A stretch of DNA of 64,000 nucleotides from Promethearchaeota archaeon (GCA_011364925.1 RDOA01000003.1:80068-144067); one strand, 5' to 3'; positions 1-31,636 are shown, numbered from the stretch's first letter. Notes: a model not told the origin generated them from the sequence alone. Numbers and translations: made by a program.

Positions 1-860
1 TCGCTTTCTACAATCTCATGTACCCAATAATCAAGCATTCTCTTCTCTATTTTGTAAAATCTCGAAAAATCCTCAAAAGATAAGTAATCAGGATAAAAAT
101 CGGGATGATTTATTGAAATAAAGAGCAAAATTTTGTAAAAATCCTCCTCATCTTTTAAGATTGAGTTAACTTTTAAATAATCTAATTTTAAAACCTTATT
201 GAGAAATCTAAATTTTACACGATCGTCAATAATATTGAACTTATCGAAGAAATGCGACGCTTTTACAGTGATTTCGTCTATTCGCTTTCTTTCTTCTTCT
301 AAAATTGTTTGTCTGTCTAAATTATAATTTTGTAGAATCCTCGAATATTCTATTTTCCCTAATTGAGTAATGATATATCTTTTGTTTTCTCTGACGATAA
401 ATCCCTTTTGAATTAATAAACTTAGAGTTTTTGATAAAGAGGACTGATTTATAGAGAAAGGTTTTTCAAGAAAATCAGACCTTTTACAAAACCCATTATT
501 GTACACCATCCAAATAATCCAGTGGGCATAATTTCGCCCTCTCTTCAAAATGACATCAGGGGGGAAACTTAGTTTTCGTTCCCTGGTTCTTTCTCTTGAT
601 AATTCTTGAAATTTTTGTTCCCCTTCTGGAGTTATCTGGTATTGTCCTCTAGAAAGTTTCTCTACGAAGCCTTTGAGGATTAATTTTGTTAAATGACGGG
701 AAATTGTAGATATGGGAATTTCAAGCGGTTTTTGTTCGAAATAGGACCATTCACAACTTTCATTATTCTTTAACATCCAAAGAATAATATGGTCATAGTT
801 TGGCCTTTTCAGTTTAGAGGAATTAAGAATCTCATCGGAAGGATAATTTATTTTGCTCAT
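1..860 (-). CDS. Partial (3'-truncated by window edge) tandem winged-helix domain protein, Lokiarchaeal type
   Basis: Not in ORF track. ATG at 860-858 reads MSKINYPSDEILNSSKLKRPNYDHIILWMLKNNESCEWSYFEQKPLEIPISTISRHLTKLILKGFVEKLSRGQYQITPEG..., followed by a second similar wHTH repeat (WIIWMVYNNGFC...SLSKTLSLLIQKGFIV...YIITQLG). Confidence 0.8.
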   Translation of the reverse strand, partial: MSKINYPSDEILNSSKLKRPNYDHIILWMLKNNESCEWSYFEQKPLEIPISTISRHLTKLILKGFVEKLSRGQYQITPEGEQKFQELSRERTRERKLSFPPDVILKRGRNYAHWIIWMVYNNGFCKRSDFLEKPFSINQSSLSKTLSLLIQKGFIVRENKRYIITQLGKIEYSRILQNYNLDRQTILEEERKRIDEITVKASHFFDKFNIIDDRVKFRFLNKVLKLDYLKVNSILKDEEDFYKILLFISINHPDFYPDYLSFEDFSRFYKIEKRMLDYWVHEIVES

Positions 861-17873: not shown

Positions 17874-18113
17874 TATAAAACTCCCAATTTTTGTTATTCA
17901 ATAATAAAATAGTGCACACTTATTTATAACTTTTTTCACTATGATCTGTGATCAACTTAGTTTTTTTTTGTGAATTTTGTGGGATTTATAAATAGAAAAA
18001 CTATTATTTAAATAGTGGGAAGCATTTTTGATCCACAAGGAATATCAAATTTAAACTTTATTTGGTATTAAAACTGAAAAAAATAGAAAAAATATCTAGA
18101 GAAGTTGAAAAAA

Positions 18114-18338
18114 ATGGCAGATAAAACACTTAATGCAATAGGTAAAAAATGCCCTATGCCTGTTCTCATGACCAAAAAAGAGCTAAAAAACATGAGTTCA
18201 GGACAAACTCTTGAATTGGTTGTCGATGATAAAGGAGCATTAAAAGATGTTCCGGCACTTATCAGTAAAACCGGTGATTCAATACTCGAGACGAAAGAAG
18301 GCGAAAACCAGATAACATTTATGATTAAAAAGGCTTAA
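18114..18338 (+). CDS. tusA: TusA/SirA sulfur carrier
   Basis: LNAIGKKCPMPVL CPxP motif; ATG 18114 preferred over TTG 18105. Confidence 0.92.
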   Translation: MADKTLNAIGKKCPMPVLMTKKELKNMSSGQTLELVVDDKGALKDVPALISKTGDSILETKEGENQITFMIKKA

Positions 18339-18367
18339 ACCAGAGATTAAAACACGCGTGATGTACA

Positions 18368-18736
18368 ATGACAACCTATTCTTTTTTTATTAGTACGGAA
18401 CCTTACAAATTTGAAGCAAGCGATTCGTTAATCGAAATGGGTAAAGCTTTAATAAAGAAGGGACACAGTATAAAGGGTTTATTTTTCTTTGGAACTGGCG
18501 TATATAACATCAAGGGCGATATTAGTAGTGGAAGCTCAATAAGAAACATTCCAAAAAAGCTTGAAGAGTTTGCGACTGAGAACAAGATTCCAGTGGTTGG
18601 ATGTTCCACTTGGGTAAGTTTGACTGGGTTAAAAGAACCAGAGTTTATTGAAGGGGCAACGGAAGAGGGATTAGGCGACTTTTCAAATTGGGCTGTAGAA
18701 TCAGACAAATTAATTGTATTTGGAGCGGGGTGTTAA
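18368..18736 (+). CDS. dsrE: DsrE/TusD-like sulfurtransferase subunit
   Basis: TEPY, GHSIKGLFFFGTGVYN, conserved active-site Cys in VGCSTW, GLGDF...SDKLIVF. Confidence 0.85.
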   Translation: MTTYSFFISTEPYKFEASDSLIEMGKALIKKGHSIKGLFFFGTGVYNIKGDISSGSSIRNIPKKLEEFATENKIPVVGCSTWVSLTGLKEPEFIEGATEEGLGDFSNWAVESDKLIVFGAGC

Positions 18737-19110
18737 AAATAACAATAGAATCTGTAGTAATAATAACTGACCAAGGACCGATTGGTAAAAATTCAGCTTT
18801 AGAAGCAGTCCGTATTGGTTCCGGATTCGTAGCACTCGGTGAATTTGTGGACTGCAAAATGGTATTTACAGGAGACGCAGTTTACTTGCTCAATAAAAAC
18901 GCAAAACCAGAAGCGGTTGGAATGGATCCATACGACGAGGTTATGGAAATTGCAGACTTATCAGACTTAGAATTATACGTTCTTGATCAAGCGTTACAAG
19001 ACGCTGGAATGAGTGCTGAAGATTTAGTTGAGTACGAAAATTTGAGCATAATTACATACGACGAACTAGTCGATTTAATTGAAAATGCAACTACGAGTTT
19101 TAGATTTTAA
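18730..19110 (+). CDS. dsrF: DsrF/TusC-like subunit
   Basis: QGPIGKNSALEAVR, VFTGDAVYLL, C-terminal SFRF; start moved to GTG 18730. Confidence 0.8.
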   Translation: MLKITIESVVIITDQGPIGKNSALEAVRIGSGFVALGEFVDCKMVFTGDAVYLLNKNAKPEAVGMDPYDEVMEIADLSDLELYVLDQALQDAGMSAEDLVEYENLSIITYDELVDLIENATTSFRF

Positions 19111-19126
19111 ACGAGGAGAATAAATA

Positions 19127-19468
19127 ATGGCTGAAAACAGAAAAATATTGTATTTATTTGGATATAGTGAAATAACAGGAACACATTTGAAGCGGTTATT
19201 ACCCATTTTAAAAGCACAGATTGCCAAAGGGTCTCAAATTGGACTCGTGTTGATTCACGACGGCGTAATCGGGATTAACAAAAAAGGGAATATCCCCGAG
19301 ATGATGGGCGAACTACTTAGCTTGAATGTAGCAATTTACGCAATGATACCTGATTTGCAAGCTCGAGGGATTGCTCAAGAAAGTATTCACGACAAGGTTA
19401 AGCCGATTGGATATGACGAACTAATCGATATTATTGATGTAACACCAAAAATAATATCTTGGATGTAA
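19127..19468 (+). CDS. dsrH: DsrH/TusB-like subunit
   Basis: LIHDGV, YAMIPDLQARGI, IGYDELIDII, ISW. Confidence 0.85.
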   Translation: MAENRKILYLFGYSEITGTHLKRLLPILKAQIAKGSQIGLVLIHDGVIGINKKGNIPEMMGELLSLNVAIYAMIPDLQARGIAQESIHDKVKPIGYDELIDIIDVTPKIISWM

Positions 19469-19582
19469 AAAGTCCAAGAAATCAAAATAGATTTTTTGAA
19501 AATTAAGGTAATAAAATATTACAAAATTTTGGAATATAAAATAATTAGAAATTAAAAAAACAAAAAAAAGAAGTGAAAAAAT

Positions 19583-19999
19583 ATGGGAGAAACTATTAAC
19601 TTTATAGTTAAGGACAAGTCATTCGAAAAATTCGCAATGATGATGCTCCTAGGTACCACAGCAGACGCGATGGACACTAAAACCAACTTTTTCTTTACAT
19701 TTTGGGGTTTAAAATTATTAACTAAGAAATTTAAACCGAAAGTCGCTGGTATGCCTTTTCCAATGAAGGGAATGGCTGCAGGCATGTTCAAGAAAAAGAT
19801 GGCTACATTTGGAATCGAAGATCCATGGGGTATGATTAAAGACGCTGTCGAGAATGGAAACATGAAATTATTTCCATGCCAAATGACAATGGATTTAATG
19901 GGGATTAAGAGAGAAGATCTGATTGACATTGTTGAAGAGCCTGTGGGTGCCGCAACTTTCTTAGAGATGAGTGAAGGTGGAAAAATAGTCTCACTATAA
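19583..19999 (+). CDS. DsrE2/DrsE-like sulfur carrier (soluble)
   Basis: FFTFWGL, PCQMTMDLMGI, VGAATFL. Confidence 0.88.
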   Translation: MGETINFIVKDKSFEKFAMMMLLGTTADAMDTKTNFFFTFWGLKLLTKKFKPKVAGMPFPMKGMAAGMFKKKMATFGIEDPWGMIKDAVENGNMKLFPCQMTMDLMGIKREDLIDIVEEPVGAATFLEMSEGGKIVSL

Positions 20000-20052: not shown

Positions 20053-20613
20053 ATGTCTGATGTAGAAGAACAACAAAAAAATAGAGAATTCAAGACGGAT
20101 GATGATTTCGATACTGAATTCTTTAAGAGAATAGAAAATAGGTCAAACATTATGAAATGTATCCAATGTGGAACGTGTACCGCGAGTTGTGAAAGTGGTA
20201 GATGGACTGCATTAAAAACTCGTTCGATTGTACGAAAAGTTGTTCTCGGAGATTTATCAGTACTGGATGACCCGGATATTTGGCTCTGTACGACCTGTTA
20301 TCAGTGTTATGAGCGATGTCCACGGGATGTAAAACCAACAGATGTTATTATGGAATTGCGAAATTACGCAACCAAACGAGGAAATATCTCACCTAACCAT
20401 AGAGCTGTTGTTGGTTACTTAAAAAATTTTGGCCACGCAGTACCGATAAATGATGAAGTAAGAAAAAGACGAGTCGAATTAGGTTTAGAAGAATTACCTC
20501 CAACTGCTTTTAAATACAAGCAAGAAGGAGATGATAAAGACTTAAAAAAGATTGAAAAATATATGTTTGATTTACCTCCCGTTAAGGAGGAAAAAAAAGG
20601 AGAGGAGAAATAA
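20053..20613 (+). CDS. hdrC: Heterodisulfide reductase subunit C
   Basis: CIQCGTCTASC, IWLCTTCYQCYERCPR, GHAVPIN. Confidence 0.93.
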   Translation: MSDVEEQQKNREFKTDDDFDTEFFKRIENRSNIMKCIQCGTCTASCESGRWTALKTRSIVRKVVLGDLSVLDDPDIWLCTTCYQCYERCPRDVKPTDVIMELRNYATKRGNISPNHRAVVGYLKNFGHAVPINDEVRKRRVELGLEELPPTAFKYKQEGDDKDLKKIEKYMFDLPPVKEEKKGEEK

Positions 20614-20616
20614 ATA

Positions 20617-21531
20617 ATGGTTAAAGAACATACATTTGCTTTTTTCCTCGGATGTATCATGCCCAATAGATATCCTGCGATTGAGAAAGCAACTAAATTC
20701 GTGATGGAGAAGCTTGGATATGAAATATTGGAAATGGAGAGGGCTACTTGCTGTCCAGCTCCAGGAGTATTCCGTTCATTCAATAAATTTGATTGGATGG
20801 TTGCGGGAGCTAGAAATTTATGCATTGCTGAACAATTAGATGCTGATATTCTTACTGTTTGTAATGGATGTTTTGGTACACTCCAAGAAATTAACAAACA
20901 TCTTAAAGAAAACGAGGAACATCGAATACAAGTAAATGAGAAACTGAAACTCCTCGGAGACTACGAATTCAAGGGGATAATTGACGTTCGTCATGTTGCC
21001 GAAGTACTTGGATACGAAGTTGGACCTTGGGGGATAGAAGACCATATAGTAAGAAAGCTGAATTTGAAAGCTGCAATTCATTACGGGTGCCACTTTCTAA
21101 AACCAACCAGAATTAGAGAAATTGAGAGTTCAGAAGGACCTACAATAATCGAAGATTTCGTTGAAGCGTTAGGAATAGAGTCCGTTCGGTTCAAAGAGCA
21201 ACTTACTTGCTGTGGAGCGGGTGGTGGCGTAAAAGCTTATTCTGGCGATGCGAGCATGACCATATTCGGGGAGAAAATGAAAAATATTGATGAAGTTAAA
21301 CCTGATATTATATTAGATATCTGTCCATTCTGTCACTTACAGTTTGAGACAGGTCAAGATTATCTCAACAAAAATAAGGAATGTAATTACGATTATCCAG
21401 TGTTCCATCTTTCGCAAGTTTTAGCATATTGTATGGGAATGGATGTAGACTTTATTGGCCTTCAGTATCAAATGATGGGCAGGGACTTTATTTTTGGTGG
21501 AGAAGATGTTAAAAAAGAGGAGGCAATTTAA
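20617..21531 (+). CDS. hdrB: Heterodisulfide reductase subunit B
   Basis: FLGCIMPNRYP, CCPAPG, CNGC, HYGCHFLKP, CCGAGGG, CPFCHLQF (two CCG domains). Confidence 0.95.
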   Translation: MVKEHTFAFFLGCIMPNRYPAIEKATKFVMEKLGYEILEMERATCCPAPGVFRSFNKFDWMVAGARNLCIAEQLDADILTVCNGCFGTLQEINKHLKENEEHRIQVNEKLKLLGDYEFKGIIDVRHVAEVLGYEVGPWGIEDHIVRKLNLKAAIHYGCHFLKPTRIREIESSEGPTIIEDFVEALGIESVRFKEQLTCCGAGGGVKAYSGDASMTIFGEKMKNIDEVKPDIILDICPFCHLQFETGQDYLNKNKECNYDYPVFHLSQVLAYCMGMDVDFIGLQYQMMGRDFIFGGEDVKKEEAI

Positions 21532-23571
21532 ATGACTGTTGAAGAAAAAGTCAAAAAAACTGACGAAATTAAGGGCGGGGCAGATTCTAAAGAAGCAGAA
21601 GAAGAGCCTAGAATTGGTGTTTTTATTTGCCACTGTGGACACAATATTGCTGGTACGGTTGATGTTGCCAAAGTGGCAGAATACGCCAAAACTTTACCTA
21701 ACGTGGTTAAGGCCGAACATTATATGTTCATGTGTAGCAAACCGGGAGTTCAAATGCTTAAAGATTCGATTGAAGAACTTGGAGTTAATAGAACAGTTGT
21801 GGCTTCATGCTCAAAAAATCAACATGGGAGAACCTTTGCTAACGCGATCCAAGAAGAGGGATTAAATAAACATAGACACCAACAAGTTAACATAAGAGAA
21901 TTTAATAGTTGGGTTCATCAAAAAGAGAAAGATAAAGCCACAGAAAAAGCGAAAAAGTTAGTAGAAGCGGGCGTTAACCGAGCAAGGAAATTAGAGGATG
22001 TTGAAACTCGCAGAATTGCGACTACTAAAGCTGCTCTGGTTATTGGTGCTGGAATTGCGGGACTTCGCGCTAGTTATGATTTAGCTGAATTAGGGATACC
22101 AGTTTACTTAATAGAGAGGTTATCTACAATTGGAGGGCACATGACTCAATTAAATAAAACGTTCCCGACACTTGAATGCCCTCAGTGTTCCATAAGTCCA
22201 TTAACTAATGGAGTTGCGAACCATCCGCTAGTAGAACTTTATACAAACGCTCAGATTAAAAATGTTGGTGGCTCTATGGGGAATTTCGAAGTGGAAGTCG
22301 AGATTAAACCTCGATATGTTAAGGATAATTGTACTTCATGCGGTGAATGTTCAGCTCATTGTCCTGTTGAAGTGCCAAGCGAGTGGGATAGTGGAATGTC
22401 TATACGTAAAGCGATATATAAGGCTTATCCACAAGCGATACCTGCGACTTTTGTCAGAGATAAGAAGAACTGTATTGAATGCAACACCTGTGTTAACATA
22501 TGTCCGGTCAAAGCCGTTGATTTTTCGATGGAGACTGAGACCAAAACGTTCAAAGTCGGCTCTATTGTTGTAGCTGCGGGTTATGACGAATACGATCCTT
22601 CAGAAATCGAACCTTATCACTACGGACAAAAAGGATTCGAAGATGTCATTACACAGTTGAAATTGGAACGAATGTTAGCTCCAGGATCACTTACAAACAG
22701 TCAAGTTTTAAGACCTTCAGATGCAAAAATTCCGAAGAGTGTTGTAATGATCCAGTGTGTTGGGAGTCGAAATGACCAAGTTGGAAACGAATATTGCACA
22801 GGAGTCTGTTGTAAGTTTGCGATTAAGAACGCAAGAATTGTTAAAGAGATGTATCCTGACACTGACGTGACTATTTGTTATATTGATGTGCGAACTCCAG
22901 GGCTCAACTTTGAGGAGTTATATAAATCGGCTCAGGAAGTTGGAGTGAGATTTATCAGAGGGCGCCCATCAGAGATTGTGAGAGATCCGATATCTGGGAA
23001 TCTAAAGGTAATCGTTGAAGATACTTTAAGTATGACTCCATTACAGTTGAAAGCTGACATGGTGGTATTAAGTGCTGCGATGGTTCCACCTGAAGGAATT
23101 GGACCACTTGGGTCAAAACTTCAAGTATTAAGGTCAAAAGAAGGATTTTTGAAGGAATTTCATATCAAAATGAACCCTACATTAAGTAGCAAAGGTGGAA
23201 TTTTTATAGCTGGTGCGATTCAAGGTCCTAAGGATATTTCTGAATCGGTGGCTCAAGCAGGGAATGCCGCTGCGATCGCTGCTGCACCGTTGGTAAAAGG
23301 TTATATCGAAAAAGAAATGCTTATTCCTTCAGTTGATCTTGACCTATGCGTTAGATGTGGATTATGCAAAACTGTTTGCGCTCCAGCTGCAATACAAATT
23401 AACGACGATGGAACGCCGATGGTGAACGAAGTCGCTTGCAAGTCATGTGGTATGTGTATGCCTGCATGTCCTACAGGAGCAATACAATTATTAAACTTTA
23501 GCGATAAACAACTATTAGATGAAATTATACCAATAGCAGGCGGAGGTGCTGTATGCGAAGATGAGCTGTGA
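21532..23571 (+). CDS. hdrA: Heterodisulfide reductase subunit A (methanogen-type, Cys form)
   Basis: IGVFICHCG.NI, IGAGIAG, KTFPTLECPQC, inserted 2x[4Fe-4S], IQCVGSR, QGPKDI, C-terminal ferredoxin. Confidence 0.96.
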   Translation: MTVEEKVKKTDEIKGGADSKEAEEEPRIGVFICHCGHNIAGTVDVAKVAEYAKTLPNVVKAEHYMFMCSKPGVQMLKDSIEELGVNRTVVASCSKNQHGRTFANAIQEEGLNKHRHQQVNIREFNSWVHQKEKDKATEKAKKLVEAGVNRARKLEDVETRRIATTKAALVIGAGIAGLRASYDLAELGIPVYLIERLSTIGGHMTQLNKTFPTLECPQCSISPLTNGVANHPLVELYTNAQIKNVGGSMGNFEVEVEIKPRYVKDNCTSCGECSAHCPVEVPSEWDSGMSIRKAIYKAYPQAIPATFVRDKKNCIECNTCVNICPVKAVDFSMETETKTFKVGSIVVAAGYDEYDPSEIEPYHYGQKGFEDVITQLKLERMLAPGSLTNSQVLRPSDAKIPKSVVMIQCVGSRNDQVGNEYCTGVCCKFAIKNARIVKEMYPDTDVTICYIDVRTPGLNFEELYKSAQEVGVRFIRGRPSEIVRDPISGNLKVIVEDTLSMTPLQLKADMVVLSAAMVPPEGIGPLGSKLQVLRSKEGFLKEFHIKMNPTLSSKGGIFIAGAIQGPKDISESVAQAGNAAAIAAAPLVKGYIEKEMLIPSVDLDLCVRCGLCKTVCAPAAIQINDDGTPMVNEVACKSCGMCMPACPTGAIQLLNFSDKQLLDEIIPIAGGGAVCEDEL

Positions 23572-24010
23572 AGATATAGAGCCAGAAGTAATGGAAAAGA
23601 TCCAAGATATTGTTGTTTTTATGTGTAACGAATGTGGACAAGGATCGGCAAATACTGCTGGTGTAGCAAGAATGGCGTATAATCCCGCAATCCGAATCGT
23701 TCGAGTCCAATGCACGGGTCAAGTAGGACCTATTCAAATAATGGATGCTTTGAATAACGGTGCTGATGCGGTTGCTTGCGTTGGTTGTTGTCTTGGAGCG
23801 TGTCATTTCTTTAACGGAAATATTTTATCGATGCATAGAATCAAACTGCTGAAGAAAGTATTTAAAGAATTAGGGTATAGCGATCAGTTTGTTAATCAAT
23901 ACACATCACGAGCCGCGGAAGGAGAAACAGCTGTAGGAGATTTTGAGGATTTAGTGATACGATTGTCTAATGCAATTAGAGAGGAGGGGACAATAAAAGA
24001 TGGATGTTAG
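23561..24010 (+). CDS. mvhD: MvhD [2Fe-2S] subunit
   Basis: FMCNEC, IRIVRVQCTG, ALNNGAD, GCCLGACHF..GN; ATG 23561 preferred. Confidence 0.9.
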   Translation: MSCEDIEPEVMEKIQDIVVFMCNECGQGSANTAGVARMAYNPAIRIVRVQCTGQVGPIQIMDALNNGADAVACVGCCLGACHFFNGNILSMHRIKLLKKVFKELGYSDQFVNQYTSRAAEGETAVGDFEDLVIRLSNAIREEGTIKDGC

Positions 24011-25235
24011 AATTTTTCAATTTAATGGCTGCAATAAATGTTTCAACGAGACGATTCTCCTTAACGGTGAATCAAAATACAAGATTGAATTCATTGAAGA
24101 TCCGAAGAATTGGAAAGAGATGAAAACTGATGTTTCTGTTATAACAGGATACCTTTTACCTGAAGATAAAGATACTTTAGAAAAAATTAAATCAAATTCG
24201 AAACGAGTCGTTGGTTACGGAAATTGTACTACGATGGGAGGAATATTTGCTTTAGCTAATCAAAGAGGCTATGAAGTATCCCCATTGAGTAGTTTCATCG
24301 AAGAAACAGAGAAAGTAAATGGTTGTCTGGGAGAAATTGAAGAATTGAGTGTAGCGATTAACAGTGAGGCGGCTCCTAAATTACAGAATTTATGTGCGGT
24401 TTGCGCAAGAGAAACGACTTGCGATTACTTAGAAAGTGTTCATCGTCAAATAGAATTAGAAGACGAGACAACATGTTTTAACGATCTCGGATATCTTTGT
24501 AATGGTTTTGTTGCTAAAGAATGTAAAGAGCGATGTATCGATTATAACGCACCTTGTAGAGGATGTAAACCAATTATAGATCGTTCAGGGATTAGAATGT
24601 TAGGAATGTTCGGTACTCTAATGGGCAACATTGAGGTTGCGACAGAGCATTCGGAATTAGGCGCTACTGATAAGCTTGCAGATCGAGACGATGATATTAC
24701 AGATAGTTTACCTGATGTTTTAGGCAATTTCTTTAGATTTACTCTATCGACTTCAGGACTTCCCAGAGGTAGAATTCCTTCGTCAGGAAATATACTTAAC
24801 GATGTCTTTACTGGAAGATTAATAGAAGAGTTACCTCTGATTTCTGGGTTATTAGGTGGGAATCGTTCAATTTCCCTAACGCTAAAAATTATAGAAACAT
24901 ACGAGACCGCGAATAGCATTGAAGTAAGTGAACAAACAAAAAAATATCGTAAAGAATTGTTAGATTTGGAAAGCCAGTTGCAGGAAGCTATTAAAAGCAA
25001 AGATCCTAAGCAGTATAAAAAGATTACAGACGAAATCAGAAAAATAGGCGGAAATATGAATTTATCAAACGTATATTTCGGAGGATTCAAAGCTCAGATC
25101 GACGATAAAGACAATTTTGAAGATTATAAAGCCCACGTTTTTGATGTGGTTGAAGGAACCTATAAGAATGGTTCAGTAGAATTTACGATTGATCCAATCG
25201 GTATTGTAAAAGAAATAAAAATTAAAGAGGGATAA
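24000..25235 (+). CDS. MvhG/FrhG-like Fe-S small subunit with ~170-aa C-terminal extension
   Basis: GCNKC, YGNCTTMGGIFALAN, NGC, LCAVCAR, CFNDLGYLCNG...C...C...PCRGC. Confidence 0.8.
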   Translation: MDVRIFQFNGCNKCFNETILLNGESKYKIEFIEDPKNWKEMKTDVSVITGYLLPEDKDTLEKIKSNSKRVVGYGNCTTMGGIFALANQRGYEVSPLSSFIEETEKVNGCLGEIEELSVAINSEAAPKLQNLCAVCARETTCDYLESVHRQIELEDETTCFNDLGYLCNGFVAKECKERCIDYNAPCRGCKPIIDRSGIRMLGMFGTLMGNIEVATEHSELGATDKLADRDDDITDSLPDVLGNFFRFTLSTSGLPRGRIPSSGNILNDVFTGRLIEELPLISGLLGGNRSISLTLKIIETYETANSIEVSEQTKKYRKELLDLESQLQEAIKSKDPKQYKKITDEIRKIGGNMNLSNVYFGGFKAQIDDKDNFEDYKAHVFDVVEGTYKNGSVEFTIDPIGIVKEIKIKEG

Positions 25236-25237
25236 AC

Positions 25238-27700
25238 ATGAGTTTCGAATTATTAAGGAGCGAAATTATTGACGCAGGTTTATGTCAAGGTTGCGGTTTA
25301 TGTGCTGGTTCGTGCAAACACATTAATATGGAAATTGCCAGGCCGGTATTAAAAGACTATTGCATCCTTGAAAGAGATGGTGAAGATTGTGGAAAATGTT
25401 ACCAATCTTGTCCACAAGTGATCCAGAAAAAGTTTAAGGAAAAACAACCATTAGCCATATATTCGTTAAGAACAAAAAATCCTGAAATTTTAGCTAAAGC
25501 TTCTAATGGAGGATTTGTCACAACTATCGCTAAAGAACTGTTAGAAAGTGAATCTCTGAAAGAGATTGTGATGGTTCAAGAAGATGACGAAAAACCAAAA
25601 GCAGAGATAGTAACGAATCCCGATGAAGTTATTAAAAAAGCAGGAGTCGTCTATGGTCGTTCTGGGGTACTTGAGCGTTTAATAGATGTTACTGGAGAAA
25701 CCTTTGACCCTATTGGAATAGTGGGAGTACCCTGTGAAATGAGAGGAGCTGCGGAGATCGAAGAAGAAATGAATAGAGAAATCTTGAAGATCGGGCTTTT
25801 CTGTAGTTCCCAAATGCGAACAGCTGAGACTGATAAAGGTTTAGTCTGTTCTCCATGCTGTAACGGTTGCCCCTCAGGTGTTAATGCTCAAGGGTACGTG
25901 TCATTAATTCGTCAGGGAAAATACCAAGAAGCCGTGGATTTAATACGAGAAAATAATCCCTTACCGTCCATCTGTGGAAGAATTTGTACAAACGAATGTG
26001 AATACGGATGCACATTAATTGGAGACGATCATCCTGTTGCAATCAGAGAACTAAAAAAATTCGTAACAGAATGGGAAATGGAACATGGGAAGAAGAAGAA
26101 GAAAAAGGTTGCTAAAAAGAATGGTAAAAAAGTGGCTATAATTGGAGCGGGACCAGCGGGATTAACCGCTGCGCATTACTTAGCAAATAGAGGATATTCA
26201 CCAACTATTTTTGAAAAGACAGATCAAACAGGAGGTATGCTTCGATTTGGAGTCCCACAATTCAGATTACCTAATTATGTATTAGATTACGATGTAGAAT
26301 CAATAACAGATGCAGGTGTTGAGCTCGTTCTTAACAAACCTTTAGGACCTGATATGACGATCAATGATTTAAAAAAGGAAGGTTTTGAAGCAATTTTTAT
26401 TGCAACTGGTCAGTATAAACCAAGAACTTTGCACTTAGAAGGAGAAGACTTACCTAATGTTTACGTAGCTATTAACTTCCTTATGGACAGGAAGTATAGA
26501 TATTGGGAAAATAAAGAAGAATTTAATGGTAAAACAATTGGCATCATTGGGGGAGGTCCGGTTGCTGTAGATGTTGCTCAAACTGCGCTGAGACTTGGAG
26601 CGGAAAAAGTTCACCTCGTTGACATCATGAACGAAAAAGAACTCGAATTAGTCCTAAAAGATATCCCTGAAAATGAATACGAATATATGAAGTATCATTT
26701 TGCCACATCCACTTCTAAAATAACGCAAAACAAAGACGGAAAGTTAGTTTTGAACTGCTACAATATCGAATGGGGTGCTCCTGACAAGACGGGTAGACGA
26801 CCTCTAAATAAAGTTGAGGGTTCTGATTACGAGATACCCATTGATGTTATTATAATGGCAGTAGGACAAGCTGTTGACTTTGATTTAATCGATGTAGCAA
26901 CCGAAAATAAGATTGAAAAAGAGCGAAATAGGATCAAGATAAATCCGGTAACGTTTGAAACAAGTATTCCCGGAGTGTTTGCTGGAGGTGATATCGTTTC
27001 AAACTCTAAAGCTGTCGCGATTGCTGGTATTGCTCATGGGAAAGAAGCTGCGATTTCAATAGACAGATATTTGAACGGTGAGGATTTAGAAGAAGGCAGA
27101 AATTATCGAAGTCAAATGTTTTTTACTGGTCCTCGTAAACCACCTAAAGATTACTCTTTAAAACCAGAAAATTTAGAGGATGCTACTGAAGAAATACAGT
27201 GGACATTCGATGAAATTGATGAAATGTTCAACGAAGATATGGCTTTAAGGGAGGCAAGGAGATGTTTGAGTTGTAACCACTTCTGTTCCCATTGTCAAGA
27301 TTTTCCTGCCATATATTCTGACGTTACGGCAGGTGAAGTTGGTTCAGAAAAAGGTTATACAACGGTAGTTGCTTGGACAGAAAAAGGTAAAGAACTTGTT
27401 GATAACGCGATCGCGAAGGGATTATTTGACCAAGGAAAGGTTAACGAAGGAGAGTTAAAAACGGCAATAAACCTTAAATCGAAACGAGAACTTATGAATT
27501 TCGAAAAAACTCCACGAACTCAGGTATTAGACTACGTAAAAATCCAAGGACCAAGTACTATTAGCGATATAGCTCGAAATACTGGACTTGAGCAGAAAAA
27601 GGTCAGGTATGAAGCACTTCGATTAGTTCAGTTAATGGAATTTGAAATGAAAGCAGATCCTGATATGACCGAACCGCTGTTTTCTATTGTATGTGATTAA
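25238..27700 (+). CDS. Chimeric flavoprotein: ferredoxin + FrhB split by an inserted GltD/NfnB-like FAD/NAD(P)H module + C-terminal HTH
   Basis: FrhB motifs ASNGGFVT, GIVGVPCE, KIGLFC; GltD module SPCCNGCP...ICGRIC...IGAGPAG...GGMLRFGVP...GVFAGGD...EARRCLSC; FrhB resumes CSHCQDF...DVTAGEVGS..GYTTV. Confidence 0.85.
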   Translation: MSFELLRSEIIDAGLCQGCGLCAGSCKHINMEIARPVLKDYCILERDGEDCGKCYQSCPQVIQKKFKEKQPLAIYSLRTKNPEILAKASNGGFVTTIAKELLESESLKEIVMVQEDDEKPKAEIVTNPDEVIKKAGVVYGRSGVLERLIDVTGETFDPIGIVGVPCEMRGAAEIEEEMNREILKIGLFCSSQMRTAETDKGLVCSPCCNGCPSGVNAQGYVSLIRQGKYQEAVDLIRENNPLPSICGRICTNECEYGCTLIGDDHPVAIRELKKFVTEWEMEHGKKKKKKVAKKNGKKVAIIGAGPAGLTAAHYLANRGYSPTIFEKTDQTGGMLRFGVPQFRLPNYVLDYDVESITDAGVELVLNKPLGPDMTINDLKKEGFEAIFIATGQYKPRTLHLEGEDLPNVYVAINFLMDRKYRYWENKEEFNGKTIGIIGGGPVAVDVAQTALRLGAEKVHLVDIMNEKELELVLKDIPENEYEYMKYHFATSTSKITQNKDGKLVLNCYNIEWGAPDKTGRRPLNKVEGSDYEIPIDVIIMAVGQAVDFDLIDVATENKIEKERNRIKINPVTFETSIPGVFAGGDIVSNSKAVAIAGIAHGKEAAISIDRYLNGEDLEEGRNYRSQMFFTGPRKPPKDYSLKPENLEDATEEIQWTFDEIDEMFNEDMALREARRCLSCNHFCSHCQDFPAIYSDVTAGEVGSEKGYTTVVAWTEKGKELVDNAIAKGLFDQGKVNEGELKTAINLKSKRELMNFEKTPRTQVLDYVKIQGPSTISDIARNTGLEQKKVRYEALRLVQLMEFEMKADPDMTEPLFSIVCD

Positions 27701-27735: not shown

Positions 27736-27975
27736 ATGAATTTTGACCAAGAATTAAATGTCTGCGGATTAGTCTGTCCCGTTCCAGCGCTTAAAACCAA
27801 AAAACAATTAATGAAGATGCGCCCTGGAACCGTGTTAAAGGTAATAACAGACTATAAACCTGCAAGTGAATCTGTTCCAAGAGATTTAGCTAAACAAACT
27901 AAGCACAAACACTTAGGAACAGAATTTCTCGAAGACGAAGAACAGTGGTATATGTATTTTGAAGCTGTAAAATAG
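27736..27975 (+). CDS. tusA: Second TusA/SirA sulfur carrier
   Basis: LNVCGLVCPVPALKTKK, GTVLKVITD. Confidence 0.9.
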   Translation: MNFDQELNVCGLVCPVPALKTKKQLMKMRPGTVLKVITDYKPASESVPRDLAKQTKHKHLGTEFLEDEEQWYMYFEAVK

Positions 27976-30781: not shown

Positions 30782-31636
30782 GTGAGAAAGATGGAATATC
30801 AGACTATTAAATTTGAACTGAAAGAGAATGGGATTGGAATTTTGTCCCTCAATCGTCCTGAAAAATTAAACGCGATTAACTTCCAAATGGAACAAGAATT
30901 ACACGAGGCATTGGACCATTTAATGATAAATTTAGACTGTCGCATATTGATTTTACGGGCGGAAGGAAGAGCTTTTTGCGCTGGAACTGATTTACAAGAG
31001 GGTTTAATATTACACCAGAAAAAATTTCCAGAGGGATACGAGAAATATTATTTTCTGGAAGTTCCAGAACCGATTAAAAAGAAGATGTATCATCAATGGC
31101 GTATTAGCTCAATTTTCGTAAAAATGCGGAAAATAAGCCAACCGATAATTGCGTTGGTTCAAGGTGCGGCTGCCGGGGGAGGATTTGGTTTCGCGATGGC
31201 CTCGGACTTTCGGATAGTGGCTTCGGATGTTAATTTTATGAACGCCTCAATTAATATAGGCTTGTCAGGAGCAGATGTGGGAGGAAGCTATTTTCTTCCT
31301 AGATTAATTGGATCAGCTCGAGCGTCTGAAATTATGTATACTGGAAGATCTGTAGGAGCTGAAGAAGCGGTGAATATTGGATTAGCACTAAAATCAGTTG
31401 ATTCGGAAGAACTATTGAATTCAGCTCTGGAATTAGCGAATGGACTACTGAAAAAGAGCCCTTTAGGTCTTCGAATGACAAAACAAGCCCTGAATTTAAC
31501 ACTGGACTCTCCAAGTTTAGAGACTATTTGTCAATTAGAAAATTCCAGCATTGTTCTTACATTTAGTTCTAAAGATGTTAACGAAGCTTCAGCGGCTTTT
31601 TTTAGTAAACGAGATCCTAAATATCCACTTCGATAA
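30782..31636 (+). CDS. Enoyl-CoA hydratase/isomerase family (tandem paralog)
   Basis: LNRPEKLNA, AFCAGTDL, GAAAGGG; closely similar to the preceding gene. Confidence 0.92.
   Translation: MRKMEYQTIKFELKENGIGILSLNRPEKLNAINFQMEQELHEALDHLMINLDCRILILRAEGRAFCAGTDLQEGLILHQKKFPEGYEKYYFLEVPEPIKKKMYHQWRISSIFVKMRKISQPIIALVQGAAAGGGFGFAMASDFRIVASDVNFMNASINIGLSGADVGGSYFLPRLIGSARASEIMYTGRSVGAEEAVNIGLALKSVDSEELLNSALELANGLLKKSPLGLRMTKQALNLTLDSPSLETICQLENSSIVLTFSSKDVNEASAAFFSKRDPKYPLR

Follow-up and report, generated by a model that had tools for sequence, protein, structure and literature searches.

A GltD/NfnB-like flavoenzyme nested within an FrhB-type protein encoded beside HdrABC in Lokiarchaeia

The window analysed here is a stretch of 64,000 nucleotides of lokiarchaeal DNA, and its plus-strand open reading frame at 25238-27700 translates into a protein of 820 amino acids, P0001, which we confirm to be an FrhB-type iron-sulfur flavoprotein with a complete GltD/NfnB-like enzyme nested in the middle of its chain. 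In order, the protein consists of a 2x[4Fe-4S] ferredoxin domain, an FrhB N-part, the GltD/NfnB-like module, an FrhB C-part and a winged-helix tail, and our analysis supports a true domain insertion into the FrhB fold. On balance, we think that P0001 brings electrons into an HdrABC-MvhD-MvhG' complex that has no hydrogenase, as a subunit fed by NADH in this lineage, and that this complex follows the same logic as the methanogen Elp-Hdr and Fdh-Hdr complexes.

Genes for HdrABC are numerous in Asgard archaea, which, to our knowledge, make no CoM-S-S-CoB. The electron source and acceptor of their Hdr complexes bear on models of syntrophic, hydrogen-linked metabolism, and the P0001 gene probably supplies the input module to one such conserved complex, with NADH as the predicted donor in Lokiarchaeia. 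The protein is also a clean natural case of a domain inserted between two ligands of one iron-sulfur cluster, and the orthologous operons show insert-free, nested (NADPH type, then NADH type) and partial-loss states that form natural controls for one another. In the literature that we searched on FrhB/GltD and on Asgard Hdr, we found no published description of an FrhB-nested GltD; the nearest are type III HdrA and a preprint on TusA/DsrE and Hdr. The architecture, folds, motifs, conservation, synteny and order of evolutionary events are demonstrated below.

Results

Domain architecture

The gene has the following features, numbered from the first letter of the window.

25238-27700, plus strand: whole gene P0001 (open reading frame, domain map, full-length relatives)
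25238-25423, plus strand: N-terminal ferredoxin domain, aa 1-62 (eight Cys, predicted 2x[4Fe-4S])
25424-25804, plus strand: FrhB N-part, aa 63-189 (PF04422, PF04432, invariant residues)
25805-25846, plus strand: N-side junction, aa 190-203, SSQMRTAETDKGLV (homology to the loop of insert-free orthologues)
25847-26089, plus strand: insert part 1, aa 204-284, GltD/DPD-type cluster domain (PF14691 Fer4_20, conserved Cys)
26126-27082, plus strand: insert part 2, aa 297-615, FAD and dinucleotide domains (PF07992, NfnB fold match)
26534-26632, plus strand: second Rossmann beta-alpha-beta, aa 433-465 (alignments with relatives, paralogues and solved chains)
27083-27283, plus strand: insert part 3, aa 616-682, C-terminal arm ending in EARRC676LSC679 (permuted half of the GltD cluster motif)
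27284-27472, plus strand: FrhB C-part, aa 683-745 (PF04432 profile 79-146, alignments with FrhB-type chains)
27506-27697, plus strand: winged-helix tail, aa 757-820 (AF2 model of the tail, fold searches)

A sequence-only reading of this stretch had proposed the order FrhB, GltD, FrhB, with a complete GltD-like unit of about 470 aa in the middle. Every motif that it quoted sits where it was placed (GLFC at aa 186-189, GAGPAG at 303-308, GGGPVA at 438-443, HLVDIM at 459-464, EARRCLSC at 672-679, CSHCQDF at 683-689, GEVGS at 699-703 and GPSTIS at 771-776). The order holds, with the GltD module at aa 204-682 and FrhB again from C683, and the unit is complete, its size being nearer 479 aa. The Pfam families FrhB_FdhB_N, Fer4_20, Pyr_redox_2 and FrhB_FdhB_C are all matched, and the predicted structure superposes on both FrhB (Z 22.6) and NfnB (Z 35.7). 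The AF2 model of P0001 has a pLDDT of 77.7; the junction at aa 190-203 falls below 50, and the cluster loops are likewise low. All eight cysteines of the ferredoxin domain (16, 19, 22, 26, 42, 51, 54 and 58) are invariant in our alignment A2. The role of an N-terminal ferredoxin domain has been described for Fsr (PMC10229431).

The split FrhB fold and the F420 site

Pfam places FrhB_FdhB_N (PF04422) at aa 75-146, with 54.2 bits against a cut-off of 22. FrhB_FdhB_C (PF04432) scores 63 bits against a cut-off of 23.3 and is split into two stretches: profile positions 4-49 fall on aa 159-200 and positions 79-146 on aa 665-734, with positions 50-78 missing. The segment that follows the GltD module is thus FrhB_C, as had been proposed. 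The other FrhB paralogues of the same genome match positions 2-149 of PF04432 in a single piece.

Compared by sequence with FrhB-type chains of known structure (Fsr 7np8, 8rja_E, 8riu_B and FrhB 3zfs_C), aa 3-181 and aa 682-757 match opposite ends; the FrhB C-part aligns with residues 191-264 of FrhB 3zfs_C and also with 8rja_E and 8riu_B. In the predicted structure the two halves make one FrhB fold. The VIA comparison aligns it with FrhB 9r51_B at Z 22.6 (rmsd 3.4, 224 of 282 residues, model range 66..761), and further FrhB-fold matches are 8riu_E and 8rja_K, both at Z 21, and HCAR 5dqr_A at Z 17.8.

The FrhB N-part contains the flavin motif GG-x-VT (aa 91-95), G136..Y139, and the cluster ligands C166 (in VPC) and C189 (in GLFC), all invariant in A2. 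Mills et al. (2013) identified the [4Fe-4S] ligands of FrhB as Cys104/134/192/195; the FrhB-type ligands of P0001 are C166, C189, C683 and C686, and the latter two are invariant as well. In FrhB, the 163-IGKGK loop adjoins the ring and phosphate of F420, and S209 and V210 adjoin F420 (Mills et al. 2013). The FrhB segment that is absent from P0001 is the three-stranded sheet 148-172 with this conserved IGKGK loop, which bears out the suggestion that the insert occupies the place of an F420-site segment. Where FrhB reads GS209VGS, moreover, P0001 reads GE700VGS, so that Ser209 has become Glu700. The pattern G[ED]xGS occurs in 121 of the 122 nested sequences, the remaining one giving no match in the pattern search. 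Among the shorter orthologues described below, the Ser209 position holds Glu or Asp in forms with remnants of the insert, as it does in nested forms, and Phe in insert-free forms with a 17-residue loop. The FrhB flavin motifs GG-x-VT, G..Y, D688, D695, G699 and G702 are kept in all three.

F420 is available in this organism, whose genome encodes CofH/CofG and has GS[VI]GS in about nine canonical FrhB paralogues; the divergence from that motif is therefore specific to the clade. Since the F420 lid is absent and Glu700 is present, F420 is probably not the substrate of the FrhB pocket. The flavin pocket itself is kept.

The nested GltD/NfnB-like module

Fer4_20 (PF14691) is matched at aa 190-284 with 83 bits and Pyr_redox_2 (PF07992) at aa 297-596 with 96 bits. 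Against solved structures, the sequence of aa 182-621 matches NfnB, NfnA and GltD, and the best sequence match of the insert is NfnA (E 7.6e-90). The predicted fold of the insert matches NfnA, StnC and NfnB at Z 36-41: in VIA, NfnA 9n5v_A scores Z 40.6 and StnC Z 39.7, both over model range 189..684, and NfnB 4ylf_B scores Z 35.7 over model range 203..620, with GltD at Z 31.9. The curated NCBIfam models are not reached, the best being PRK12771 (395 bits, cut-off 516), with gltA (TIGR01316) at 309 bits where 472 are required.

The cluster residues of insert part 1 are C207, C211, C246, C250, C254, E255 and C258, whose cysteines are invariant or nearly so in alignment A1, free relatives included. 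C676 and C679 in the C-terminal arm are invariant, again in free relatives too. In the canonical tandem paralogue, the RCLxC stretch is N-terminal in the module and immediately precedes CxxxCP. The earlier domain description is corrected here: EARRCLSC belongs to the GltD module itself, of which it is a cluster-binding half-motif in permuted position. The FAD motifs GAGPAG (303-308), GG (332-333) and GGD (583-585) and the dinucleotide motif GGGPVAVD (438-445) are all kept, and their motif residues, among them G303, G305, G308, G332, G333, G584 and D585, are invariant in A1. With the motifs of both flavin sites retained, the proposal of a two-flavin subunit holds at the level of motifs.

The second Rossmann fold ends in KVHLVD462-I-M where relatives read YRR. 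YRR stands at the corresponding spot in all the solved relatives that we aligned (NfnA, NfnB and Xfn chains), so the acidic residue noticed in place of NADPH-specific YRR is real. The NADPH site YRRxxxEMPA that follows the second GGGxxAxD is absent, and the site reads VHLVDIMNEKELEL. HLV[DE][IL]M is found in 121 of the 122 nested sequences. According to the general rule for Rossmann folds, a beta2 strand ending in an acidic residue excludes the 2'-phosphate. The D-I-M site also lacks the EMPA motif; given that loss, it may bind nucleotide weakly or not at all.

Relatives and the order of events

Full-length relatives are 817-825 aa long, with 72-96% identity, and at least 120 clusters, defined at 90% identity and drawn from NCBI, JGI, ENA and Logan assemblies, share the architecture. 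The reading frame of the nested gene is uninterrupted in about 30 genomes. Basal nested forms, namely those of G270 (in a syntenic operon) and G285 together with the sequence P0122, keep YRR..MPA. At insertion the module was of NADPH type; its acidic motif evolved afterwards, on one branch.

In another Asgard family, the same operon contains insert-free orthologues of 343-355 aa in which the loop between GLFC and CxxC is 17 residues long, and the junction at aa 190-203 of P0001 is homologous to the first part of this loop. Since these orthologues lack the F420 sheet with no insert present, the sheet may have been lost before the insertion, which thus need not be the cause of that loss; evidently, a lidless FrhB works without GltD. 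In the tree, whose root rests on two long-branched paralogues, the 17-residue-loop forms are sister to all nested forms; they may represent either the state before the insertion or a clean deletion of the insert. The sequence-only reading had the insertion rewiring an F420 input module to NAD(H). The insertion is real, the F420 sheet is gone and YRR has given way to D-I-M; what is not supported is the attribution of these changes to the insertion, because the sheet is missing from insert-free orthologues too and the switch towards NAD(H), if it is one, was not original to the insert.

In some species of the same genus, the same operon holds a form of only 380 aa in which remnants of the insert persist. 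Short relatives of this kind (366-399 aa) retain GCTLIGD..ELK.. (cf. aa 257-283) and FxEI..C..C (cf. aa 656-679), and in the tree the remnant forms are a single clade within the nested forms. Their candidacy as pre-insertion forms is ruled out by the remnants and by this position inside the nested clade. They are deletion derivatives, in which most of the insert has been lost again.

Operon context

The neighbouring genes of the operon are as follows.

18105-19999, plus strand: sulfur-carrier genes tusA, dsrE, dsrF, dsrH and dsrE2, head of the operon (Pfam TusA, DsrE, DsrH, DrsE_2)
20053-20613, plus strand: hdrC (Pfam, NCBIfam)
20617-21531, plus strand: hdrB (Pfam, NCBIfam)
21532-23571, plus strand: hdrA (Pfam, NCBIfam)
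23546-24010, plus strand: mvhD (Pfam, NCBIfam)
24000-25235, plus strand: mvhG-like gene (MvhG') with a long C-terminal extension (Pfam, NCBIfam)
27736-27975, plus strand: second tusA, 35 nt downstream of the nested gene (Pfam TusA, 63 bits)

Upstream of the nested gene, the genes hdrCBA-mvhD-mvhG' (20053-25235) abut or overlap. The MvhG-like gene stands here without a hydrogenase large subunit, and the operon of the nested gene holds no other dehydrogenase gene. A divergent upstream gene encodes an Lrp/AsnC regulator. The order hdrCBA-mvhD-mvhG'-FrhB-type gene is conserved in G065, G270, G055 and G075, which represent two Asgard families; tusA follows the FrhB-type gene in all four of the compared operons, and the tusA/dsr sulfur-carrier block is syntenic in G065 and G270. 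No separate GltD gene lies within 8 kb downstream of the remnant-form gene in G065.

Proposed electron path and known systems

For P0001, which cofactors are bound, which nucleotide is preferred, which way electrons flow and whether a complex forms are matters of inference. In the scheme that we favour, NADH (in this lineage) or NADPH (in basal nested forms) would reduce the FAD of the inserted module by hydride transfer, and electrons would leave singly through the module's two [4Fe-4S] clusters, reach the FrhB-type [4Fe-4S] cluster held by C166, C189, C683 and C686, and continue through the two ferredoxin-domain clusters and MvhG'/MvhD to the bifurcating flavin of HdrA. Insertion between the ligands of one cluster would have been possible because the module is a circularly permuted form of GltD, both ends of which meet at a cluster. 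FrhB C189 is separated from module C207 by 17 residues, and module C679 from FrhB C683 by 3; such short spacers should keep both clusters within electron-transfer distance. Electron flow could also run in reverse, reducing NAD+.

The closest known system is ElpB/FdhB of the Elp-Hdr and Fdh-Hdr complexes, for which we take as references Elp-Hdr of M. marburgensis (PDB 8RVU) and Fdh-Hdr-Fmd of M. hungatei (7BKB/7BKC). There, FrhB-type subunits feed HdrA via MvhD/ElpC, beside a degenerate catalytic subunit (PMC12350162). P0001 is likewise an FrhB-fold iron-sulfur flavoprotein (Z 20.3 between the model and ElpB 8rvu_E), and it is likewise encoded with hdrABC, an MvhD homologue and a degenerate scaffold, which is ElpA there and MvhG' here. 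ElpB and FdhB oxidise F420H2 at the FrhB flavin, whereas P0001 has no F420 lid, has Glu in place of Ser209, and carries an NAD(P)H flavoenzyme between cluster ligands 2 and 3 as well as a winged-helix tail. Its partner scaffold, moreover, is a relative of the hydrogenase small subunit and not of FdhA, its operon contains TusA/DsrE sulfur carriers, and its host is not a methanogen.

For the inserted module, the best sequence and fold matches are NfnA (NfnABC of T. sibiricus, 9N5U/9N5V, and of C. saccharolyticus, 9BOV) and StnC (StnABC of S. ovata, 8OH5). These share its permuted order, with the RCLxC half-motif after the flavin domains, but they are linear multidomain chains with an NADPH-binding YRR, whereas the module of P0001 is nested and reads D-I-M. 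Canonical NfnB, GltD and the N-terminal half of DPD (4YLF, 5JCA, 6S6S, 1GT8) have in common with it Fer4_20, the two-dinucleotide-binding flavoprotein fold (Z 32-36) and the same FAD motifs; in contrast to P0001, they carry the RCLxC half-motif N-terminally, and their NADPH site reads YRRxxxEMPA.

The FlxABCD-HdrABC system of sulfate reducers is reportedly NADH-dependent and is said to have been proposed to reduce DsrC and ferredoxin. There too, HdrABC is fed by a flavoprotein that oxidises NAD(P)H, together with iron-sulfur subunits and a homologue of MvhD, in a sulfur-carrier context; FlxA, however, belongs to another flavoprotein family and has no FrhB fold. Type III HdrA resembles P0001 in that a subunit of an Hdr system has received a GltD module, and the paper on it, in which FrhB hosts are not described, proposes that the complex can thereby draw directly on NADH. 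In that case the module sits in the ferredoxin domain of HdrA, whereas here its host is the FrhB-type donor subunit.

Possible additional roles for the FrhB pocket

The operons with 17-residue-loop forms and those with 380-aa remnant forms contain neither a GltD module nor any other obvious donor gene. It follows that the FrhB part must be served by its own donor or partner; NAD(P)H may come in addition to this, and not as the only input. We tentatively entertain a broader reading, in which the FrhB-winged-helix proteins encoded in these Asgard Hdr operons form a new branch of the FrhB family that does not use F420 and whose exposed pocket and tail serve another partner or substrate, such as ferredoxin or TusA/DsrE-bound sulfur species; the pocket would then have been the socket for a permuted GltD module, which later went from NADPH to NADH and in some species was cut to a one-cluster stub. 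A preprint on another Asgard archaeon draws TusA/DsrE persulfides as Hdr substrates. If the broader reading is true, these operons provide a three-state series of donor-module exchange in bifurcating Hdr complexes, and the donor and substrate of a non-methanogenic Asgard Hdr become directly testable.

The lidless FrhB flavin might instead oxidise F420H2 or another hydride donor while the GltD flavin handles NAD(P)H, both either feeding Hdr or exchanging reducing equivalents between F420 and NAD(P). We regard this as unlikely. It is consistent with the conservation of the FrhB flavin motifs across nested, remnant and 17-residue-loop forms, with the fact that the insert-free orthologues are the sole candidate input genes of their operons, and with a genome that makes F420 and also encodes a linear Fer4-FrhB-GltD fusion, so that the pairing of these modules recurs. 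The absence of the three-stranded sheet with its IGKGK loop argues against it, as does the replacement of the small Ser209 beside the F420 ring by Glu/Asp in nested and remnant forms or by Phe in 17-residue-loop forms; the canonical paralogues in the genome of P0001 retain GS[VI]GS.

The winged-helix tail

Modelled by itself with AF2, the tail reaches a pLDDT of 88.6 with the topology H-b-H-H-b-wing-b. Foldseek gives TM 0.70-0.74 with Zalpha, MarR, ArsR and AspA, and VIA gives Z 8.7-10.6, the best 50 matches all being winged helices. The suggestion of a wHTH-like C-terminus is thereby borne out as to fold. The Pfam matches of the tail to HTH families are all sub-threshold (HVO_A0114 at E 0.011, HTH_5 at E 0.025), and the fold matches are generic and point to no specific winged-helix subfamily; DsrD is absent among the matches listed.

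A tail that binds DNA would make the subunit a redox-sensing autoregulator of its operon, with a logic like that of Rex. We consider this improbable, even with a confirmed fold whose best matches include the DNA binders ArsR, MarR and Zalpha, with K787, K788, R790 and R794 in helix 3 of the Loki forms, and with a few homologues that JGI calls 'predicted transcriptional regulator'. The tail is acidic to neutral. Its net charge is about -1 in P0001 and the Loki forms and lies between -2 and -6 in distant orthologues; there, helix 3 reads DDIIYHLLVLQ with no basic residue at all, which tends to argue against a DNA-binding role. The operon already has its dedicated, divergently encoded Lrp/AsnC regulator, the HTH matches in Pfam stay sub-threshold, and protein contacts are another use of winged helices. 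Because the tail is acidic, we conclude that it is most likely a docking or structural domain rather than a DNA binder.

Remaining explanations and annotation

The FrhB part could be a mere scaffold and iron-sulfur wire with an empty or vestigial flavin site, P0001 then acting in effect as an NAD(P)H dehydrogenase of GltD type, attached to Hdr through an adaptor of FrhB shape. The features of the F420 site are indeed lost, and degenerate catalytic subunits such as ElpA serve in this way in related complexes, as the MvhG-like gene without a large subunit may here. We nonetheless find this highly doubtful: the flavin-binding motifs are invariant across deep divergence, and the retention in the operon of remnant and 17-residue-loop forms without GltD is hard to explain if FrhB is inactive. 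A chimera of assembly or gene calling, an idea that stems only from the odd architecture and for which we found no support, is rejected with near certainty, given the at least 120 clusters of relatives from several collections of assemblies, the intact frames, the syntenic operons and the single fold made by the FrhB halves in the model.

Automated annotation calls P0001 'FAD-dependent oxidoreductase' or 'glutamate synthase beta subunit-like'. Metabolic reconstructions would be led astray if it were scored as an F420 enzyme, as a glutamate synthase or as a regulator.

Domain architecture and predicted fold

The window (about 31-41% G+C) is part of contig C48 in G000, a genome of 3.9 Mb that is 100% complete by marker genes; homologues point to Lokiarchaeia/Promethearchaeota. 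The ORF at window:25238-27700 (+) encodes a protein of 820 aa (P0001). Pfam places FrhB_FdhB_N at aa 75-146, Fer4_20 at 190-284 and Pyr_redox_2 at 297-596, and a genome-wide scan finds FrhB_FdhB_C in two pieces, profile positions 4-49 falling on aa 159-200 and positions 79-146 on aa 665-734. The other FrhB paralogues of G000 match this profile unbroken from 2 to 149. When P0001 is compared in sequence with solved structures, aa 3-181 and 682-757 align to both ends of FrhB-type chains, and aa 182-621 to NfnB, NfnA and GltD.

An AlphaFold2 model of P0001 (56 sequences; mean pLDDT 77.7, the less reliable regions being mostly the loops that bind clusters, the ferredoxin domain at the N-terminus and some of the C-terminal arm of the module) was searched with VIA against 48,161 representative chains. 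It matches NfnA (9n5v_A, Z 40.6, 448 residues, model 189..684), StnC (8oh5_C, Z 39.7) and NfnB (4ylf_B, Z 35.7), as well as FrhB (9r51_B, Z 22.6), for which 224 of 282 residues align over the model range 66..761; the next FrhB-type matches are 8riu_E, 8rja_K, the ElpB/FdhB-like 8rvu_E (Z 20.3) and HCAR. From these sequence and fold matches, the FrhB pieces, 490 residues apart, are predicted to make one FrhB fold around a complete GltD-type insert. A sequence-only reading had proposed such a split, and the Pfam map, the sequence comparison and the fold search of the model agree in confirming it; the segment after the module is the C-terminal part of FrhB by both profile and fold match, and the motifs quoted in that reading all occur where it placed them.

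The same reading had allowed for an assembly chimera absent from relatives, which is ruled out by more than 120 clusters of P0001-type proteins at 90% identity (817-825 aa, 72-96% identical) from NCBI, JGI, ENA and Logan assemblies, together with uninterrupted full-length frames in about 30 of 301 sampled Asgard genomes. In that sample nearly all such frames come from the family of the window, where at least 16 of the 27 other genomes of its genus have one, and a few from a sister family; other Asgard families give matches to the GltD part alone. A library clustered at 50% identity contains only two further full-length clusters, P0121 (55%) and P0122 (45%), all remaining matches being confined to aa 201-688. 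On full-length homologues 78-82% identical, NCBI labels read Heimdall-, Thor-, Odin-, Hod- or Hermodarchaeota; in the species-representative genome sample nearly all full-length forms fall within one family, and the submitters' phylum labels on these MAG proteins look unreliable.

The F420 site

In FrhB, the cluster is bound by Cys104, 134, 192 and 195, and a three-stranded sheet (148-172) has a sole conserved part, 163-IGKGK, which turns beside the F420 ring; the lysines of this turn likely bind the F420 phosphate, and S209 and V210 adjoin the cofactor (Mills et al., eLife 2013, PMC3591093). Alignment equates the four ligands with C166, C189, C683 and C686 of P0001. The profile positions missing from P0001, 50-78, are the three-stranded sheet, so the earlier suggestion that this segment helps to form the F420 site was right. 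FrhB S209 aligns with E700, and the position is E or D in 121 of 122 family members (the other gave no match to the search pattern), whereas the canonical FrhB paralogues of G000 read GS[VI]GS. The flavin-side motifs are invariant (GG-x-VT 91-95, G136..Y139, D688, D695, G699, G702). With genes for CofH/CofG and for about nine FrhB paralogues that are intact in G000, F420 is available and the divergence is specific to the P0001 clade.

The inserted module and its nucleotide site

The closest relatives of the insert are a large group of multidomain proteins, among them PRK12771-like ones, StnC and NfnA of NfnABC (about 40% identity over aa 201-688). In canonical NfnB/GltD the stretch FxEV...E..RCLxC is N-terminal, directly before CxxxCP; a linear Fer4-FrhB-GltD paralogue in G000 retains this leader, to which BLAST aligns P0001 aa 642-683. 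Since the stretch is C-terminal in the insert, the sequence identifies the module as a circularly permuted GltD, both of whose ends would meet at a cluster, and such geometry is a requirement of domain insertion. On the N side, FrhB ligand C189 is followed after 17 residues by module ligand C207; on the C side, module ligands C676 and C679 are followed after 3 residues by FrhB ligands C683 and C686. This spacing would keep the FrhB cluster near the first cluster of the module.

The solved relatives and the free ones all read YRR(S/T)xxEMPA after the second GGGxxAxD, where P0001 has VHLVD-I-M-NEKELEL, and HLV[DE][IL]M is present in 121 of 122 nested sequences. YRR..(M/L)PA is kept in three nested forms, P0122 and those of G270 (same family, syntenic operon) and G285. 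A tree of modules unites those of nested and HdrC-GltD-HdrB proteins (87) and separates them from free relatives (94). The YRR forms are basal; P0121, the P0001 group and a 919-aa HdrC-GltD-HdrB protein of G000, all acidic, share one branch (100). An NADPH-type module was therefore inserted first, and the acidic pattern came later. By the classical Rossmann-fold rule an acidic residue here excludes the 2'-phosphate and favours NADH, and we infer that the later modules prefer NADH; they may instead have lost tight nucleotide binding. The proposal that the insertion rewired an F420 input to NAD(H) thus stands as to the acidic residue, but not as to the module's arrival.

Two module-bearing paralogues and a neighbour lie together in G000, on contig C38 (locus L001):

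L001:5416-8175 = G000:C38:185415-188174 (+), 919 aa, HdrC-like 2x[4Fe-4S], GltD module and two HdrB-type CCG domains
L001:8315-9199, 294 aa, NfnA/PyrK-like (FAD_binding_6 and DHODB_Fe-S_bind), directly before the next gene
L001:9204-11933 = G000:C38:189203-191932 (+), 909 aa, linear fusion of Fer4, intact FrhB and canonical GltD/NfnB

The module of the 919-aa protein is 56-60% identical to the P0001 insert, shares the acidic motif (DLVDIL) and falls among the modules of nested forms in the tree; it seems to derive from the nested acidic lineage, and the same GltD module has apparently passed from one Hdr-related gene to another. Proteins of about 920 aa with this HdrC-GltD-HdrB layout occur in many genomes of the family. 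The 909-aa fusion (FrhB_C profile 2-149, YRR NADPH motif) is not nested, and with its NfnA/PyrK-like neighbour may be an F420-linked Nfn-type enzyme.

Relatives lacking the full insert

A search for shorter relatives returned two kinds. The first (366-399 aa, 70-78% identical to the P0001 N-part) retains, between GLFC and CxHCQDF, 52-71 residues left over from the insert: RCGCTL[IL]G..ELK.. corresponds to aa 254-283 and, in longer forms, PFxEIEK..GKxCxxC to aa 655-679. Four extra Cys (CxC and CxxC) are kept in all 20 remnant forms examined and may still bind one extra cluster. In G065, a genome of the window's genus, a 380-aa remnant form stands where P0001 does in the window: the rest of the operon is syntenic, its proteins being 58-96% identical to their window counterparts, and no separate GltD gene was found within 8 kb downstream. 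After tusA2, G065 has an extra pair of HdrC-like (171 aa) and HdrB-like (290 aa) genes at L034:6594-8000 (-), where the window has a sulfatase gene; this HdrB-like protein is 36% identical to the operon's HdrB.

The second kind (343-355 aa, 38-46% identical), from another Asgard family, has exactly 17 residues (SNNNRxxEDGKxEKLGS) between GLFC and CxHCxDF, beginning much like P0001 aa 190-203, and shares the winged-helix tail and the operon Lrp / hdrCBA-mvhD-mvhG'-gene-tusA, mvhG' being the MvhG-like hydrogenase small-subunit relative. In a maximum-likelihood tree of the FrhB core with the insert removed (46 rows, 328 columns, LG+G4, SH-aLRT), the 17-residue-loop forms are one clade (98), sister to nested and remnant forms (99), and the remnant forms are one clade (98) deep within the nested ones and hence stem from one partial deletion. 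The tree is rooted on two long-branched paralogues. The 17-residue-loop forms call for no more than a single event, an insertion or a clean deletion. It follows that the lidless FrhB-winged-helix protein is the conserved core subunit, functional without GltD. Nor does the loss of the F420 sheet have to be an effect of the insertion; it may have come earlier.

Operon and proposed role

The plus-strand operon is compact, and the P0001 gene comes last among its large genes; the order by Pfam/NCBIfam is tusA, dsrE, dsrF, dsrH, dsrE2, hdrC, hdrB, hdrA, mvhD, mvhG-like, P0001 gene, second tusA. Its flanking and partner genes are:

Upstream of the operon, divergent, Lrp/AsnC regulator
window:18105-19999 (+), TusA, DsrE, DsrF, DsrH and DsrE2 genes, head of the hdr operon
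window:24000-25235 (+), mvhG-like, 411 aa, Oxidored_q6 match restricted to aa 22-110, extension of about 200 aa
window:27736-27975 (+), second TusA gene, operon end

The ORF listing shows no [NiFe] large-subunit ORF within the operon. In both Asgard families examined mvhG' adjoins the FrhB-type gene (identity 37-78%), and in every operon compared the second TusA follows it. The TusA/DsrE gene content points to protein-bound sulfur as the Hdr substrate, as does a preprint on a different Asgard archaeon, in which TusA/DsrE persulfides are shown as the substrates of Hdr.

Among characterised systems, the nearest is Elp-Hdr of Methanothermobacter marburgensis (PMC12350162), whose logic the Asgard operon shares, with a degenerate hydrogenase small-subunit relative, MvhD and the FrhB-type P0001. 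P0001 would be the input subunit to Hdr: NADH would reduce the FAD of the module, whose two clusters would hand the electrons to the FrhB cluster; the ferredoxin domain at the N-terminus, with two clusters that correspond to the relay of Fsr and FrhG, would carry them on, via MvhG'/MvhD, to HdrA. In type III HdrA, a GltD insertion has been proposed to let the Hdr system use NADH (PMC12054007); there the host is HdrA, whereas here it is FrhB. The main rival reading is that the two flavins serve dual input or F420:NAD(P) exchange; the existence of insert-free orthologues makes this, or a different substrate for the FrhB pocket, a serious possibility. P0001 belongs, as a variant, with two groups already known, the FrhB-type donor subunits of Hdr and the mobile GltD modules. 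The literature searched contained no description of FrhB split by GltD, P0001 reaches no curated NCBIfam model, and databases name it only 'FAD-dependent oxidoreductase' or 'glutamate synthase beta subunit-like'.

The winged-helix tail

Folded alone from 30 diverse sequences, the tail (aa 745-820) gives a model with pLDDT 88.6 and the order H-b-H-H-b-wing-b, and the C-terminal wHTH noted from sequence is upheld: Foldseek matches Zalpha, MarR, ArsR-type and AspA (TM 0.70-0.74), and the best 50 VIA matches are all winged helices (Z 8.7-10.6), among them the non-DNA-binding ones of SelB, ESCRT-II, RPC39 and RPC62. Pfam HTH matches are sub-threshold only. The tail carries a net charge of -1 in P0001. 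In distant orthologues the charge is -2 to -6 and helix 3 (DDIIYHLLVLQ) lacks basic residues; the conserved positions are hydrophobic, plus R760. We read the modelled tail as a docking or structural domain; that it binds DNA seems to us unlikely. The former is a reasonable reading because DsrD, a winged-helix protein of another sulfur redox system long taken as a DNA binder, was later shown to activate DsrAB allosterically (PMC8794893).

Minor features of the window

The mvhD ORF as listed has a GTG start at 23546 and overlaps the end of hdrA by 26 nt (window:23546-23571); as Pfam FlpD starts at residue 22, its true start may be a later codon. The mvhG' gene overlaps mvhD by 11 nt. A pair of neighbouring paralogous ORFs (287 and 284 aa), alike throughout, lies at window:29882-30745 and 30782-31636 (+).
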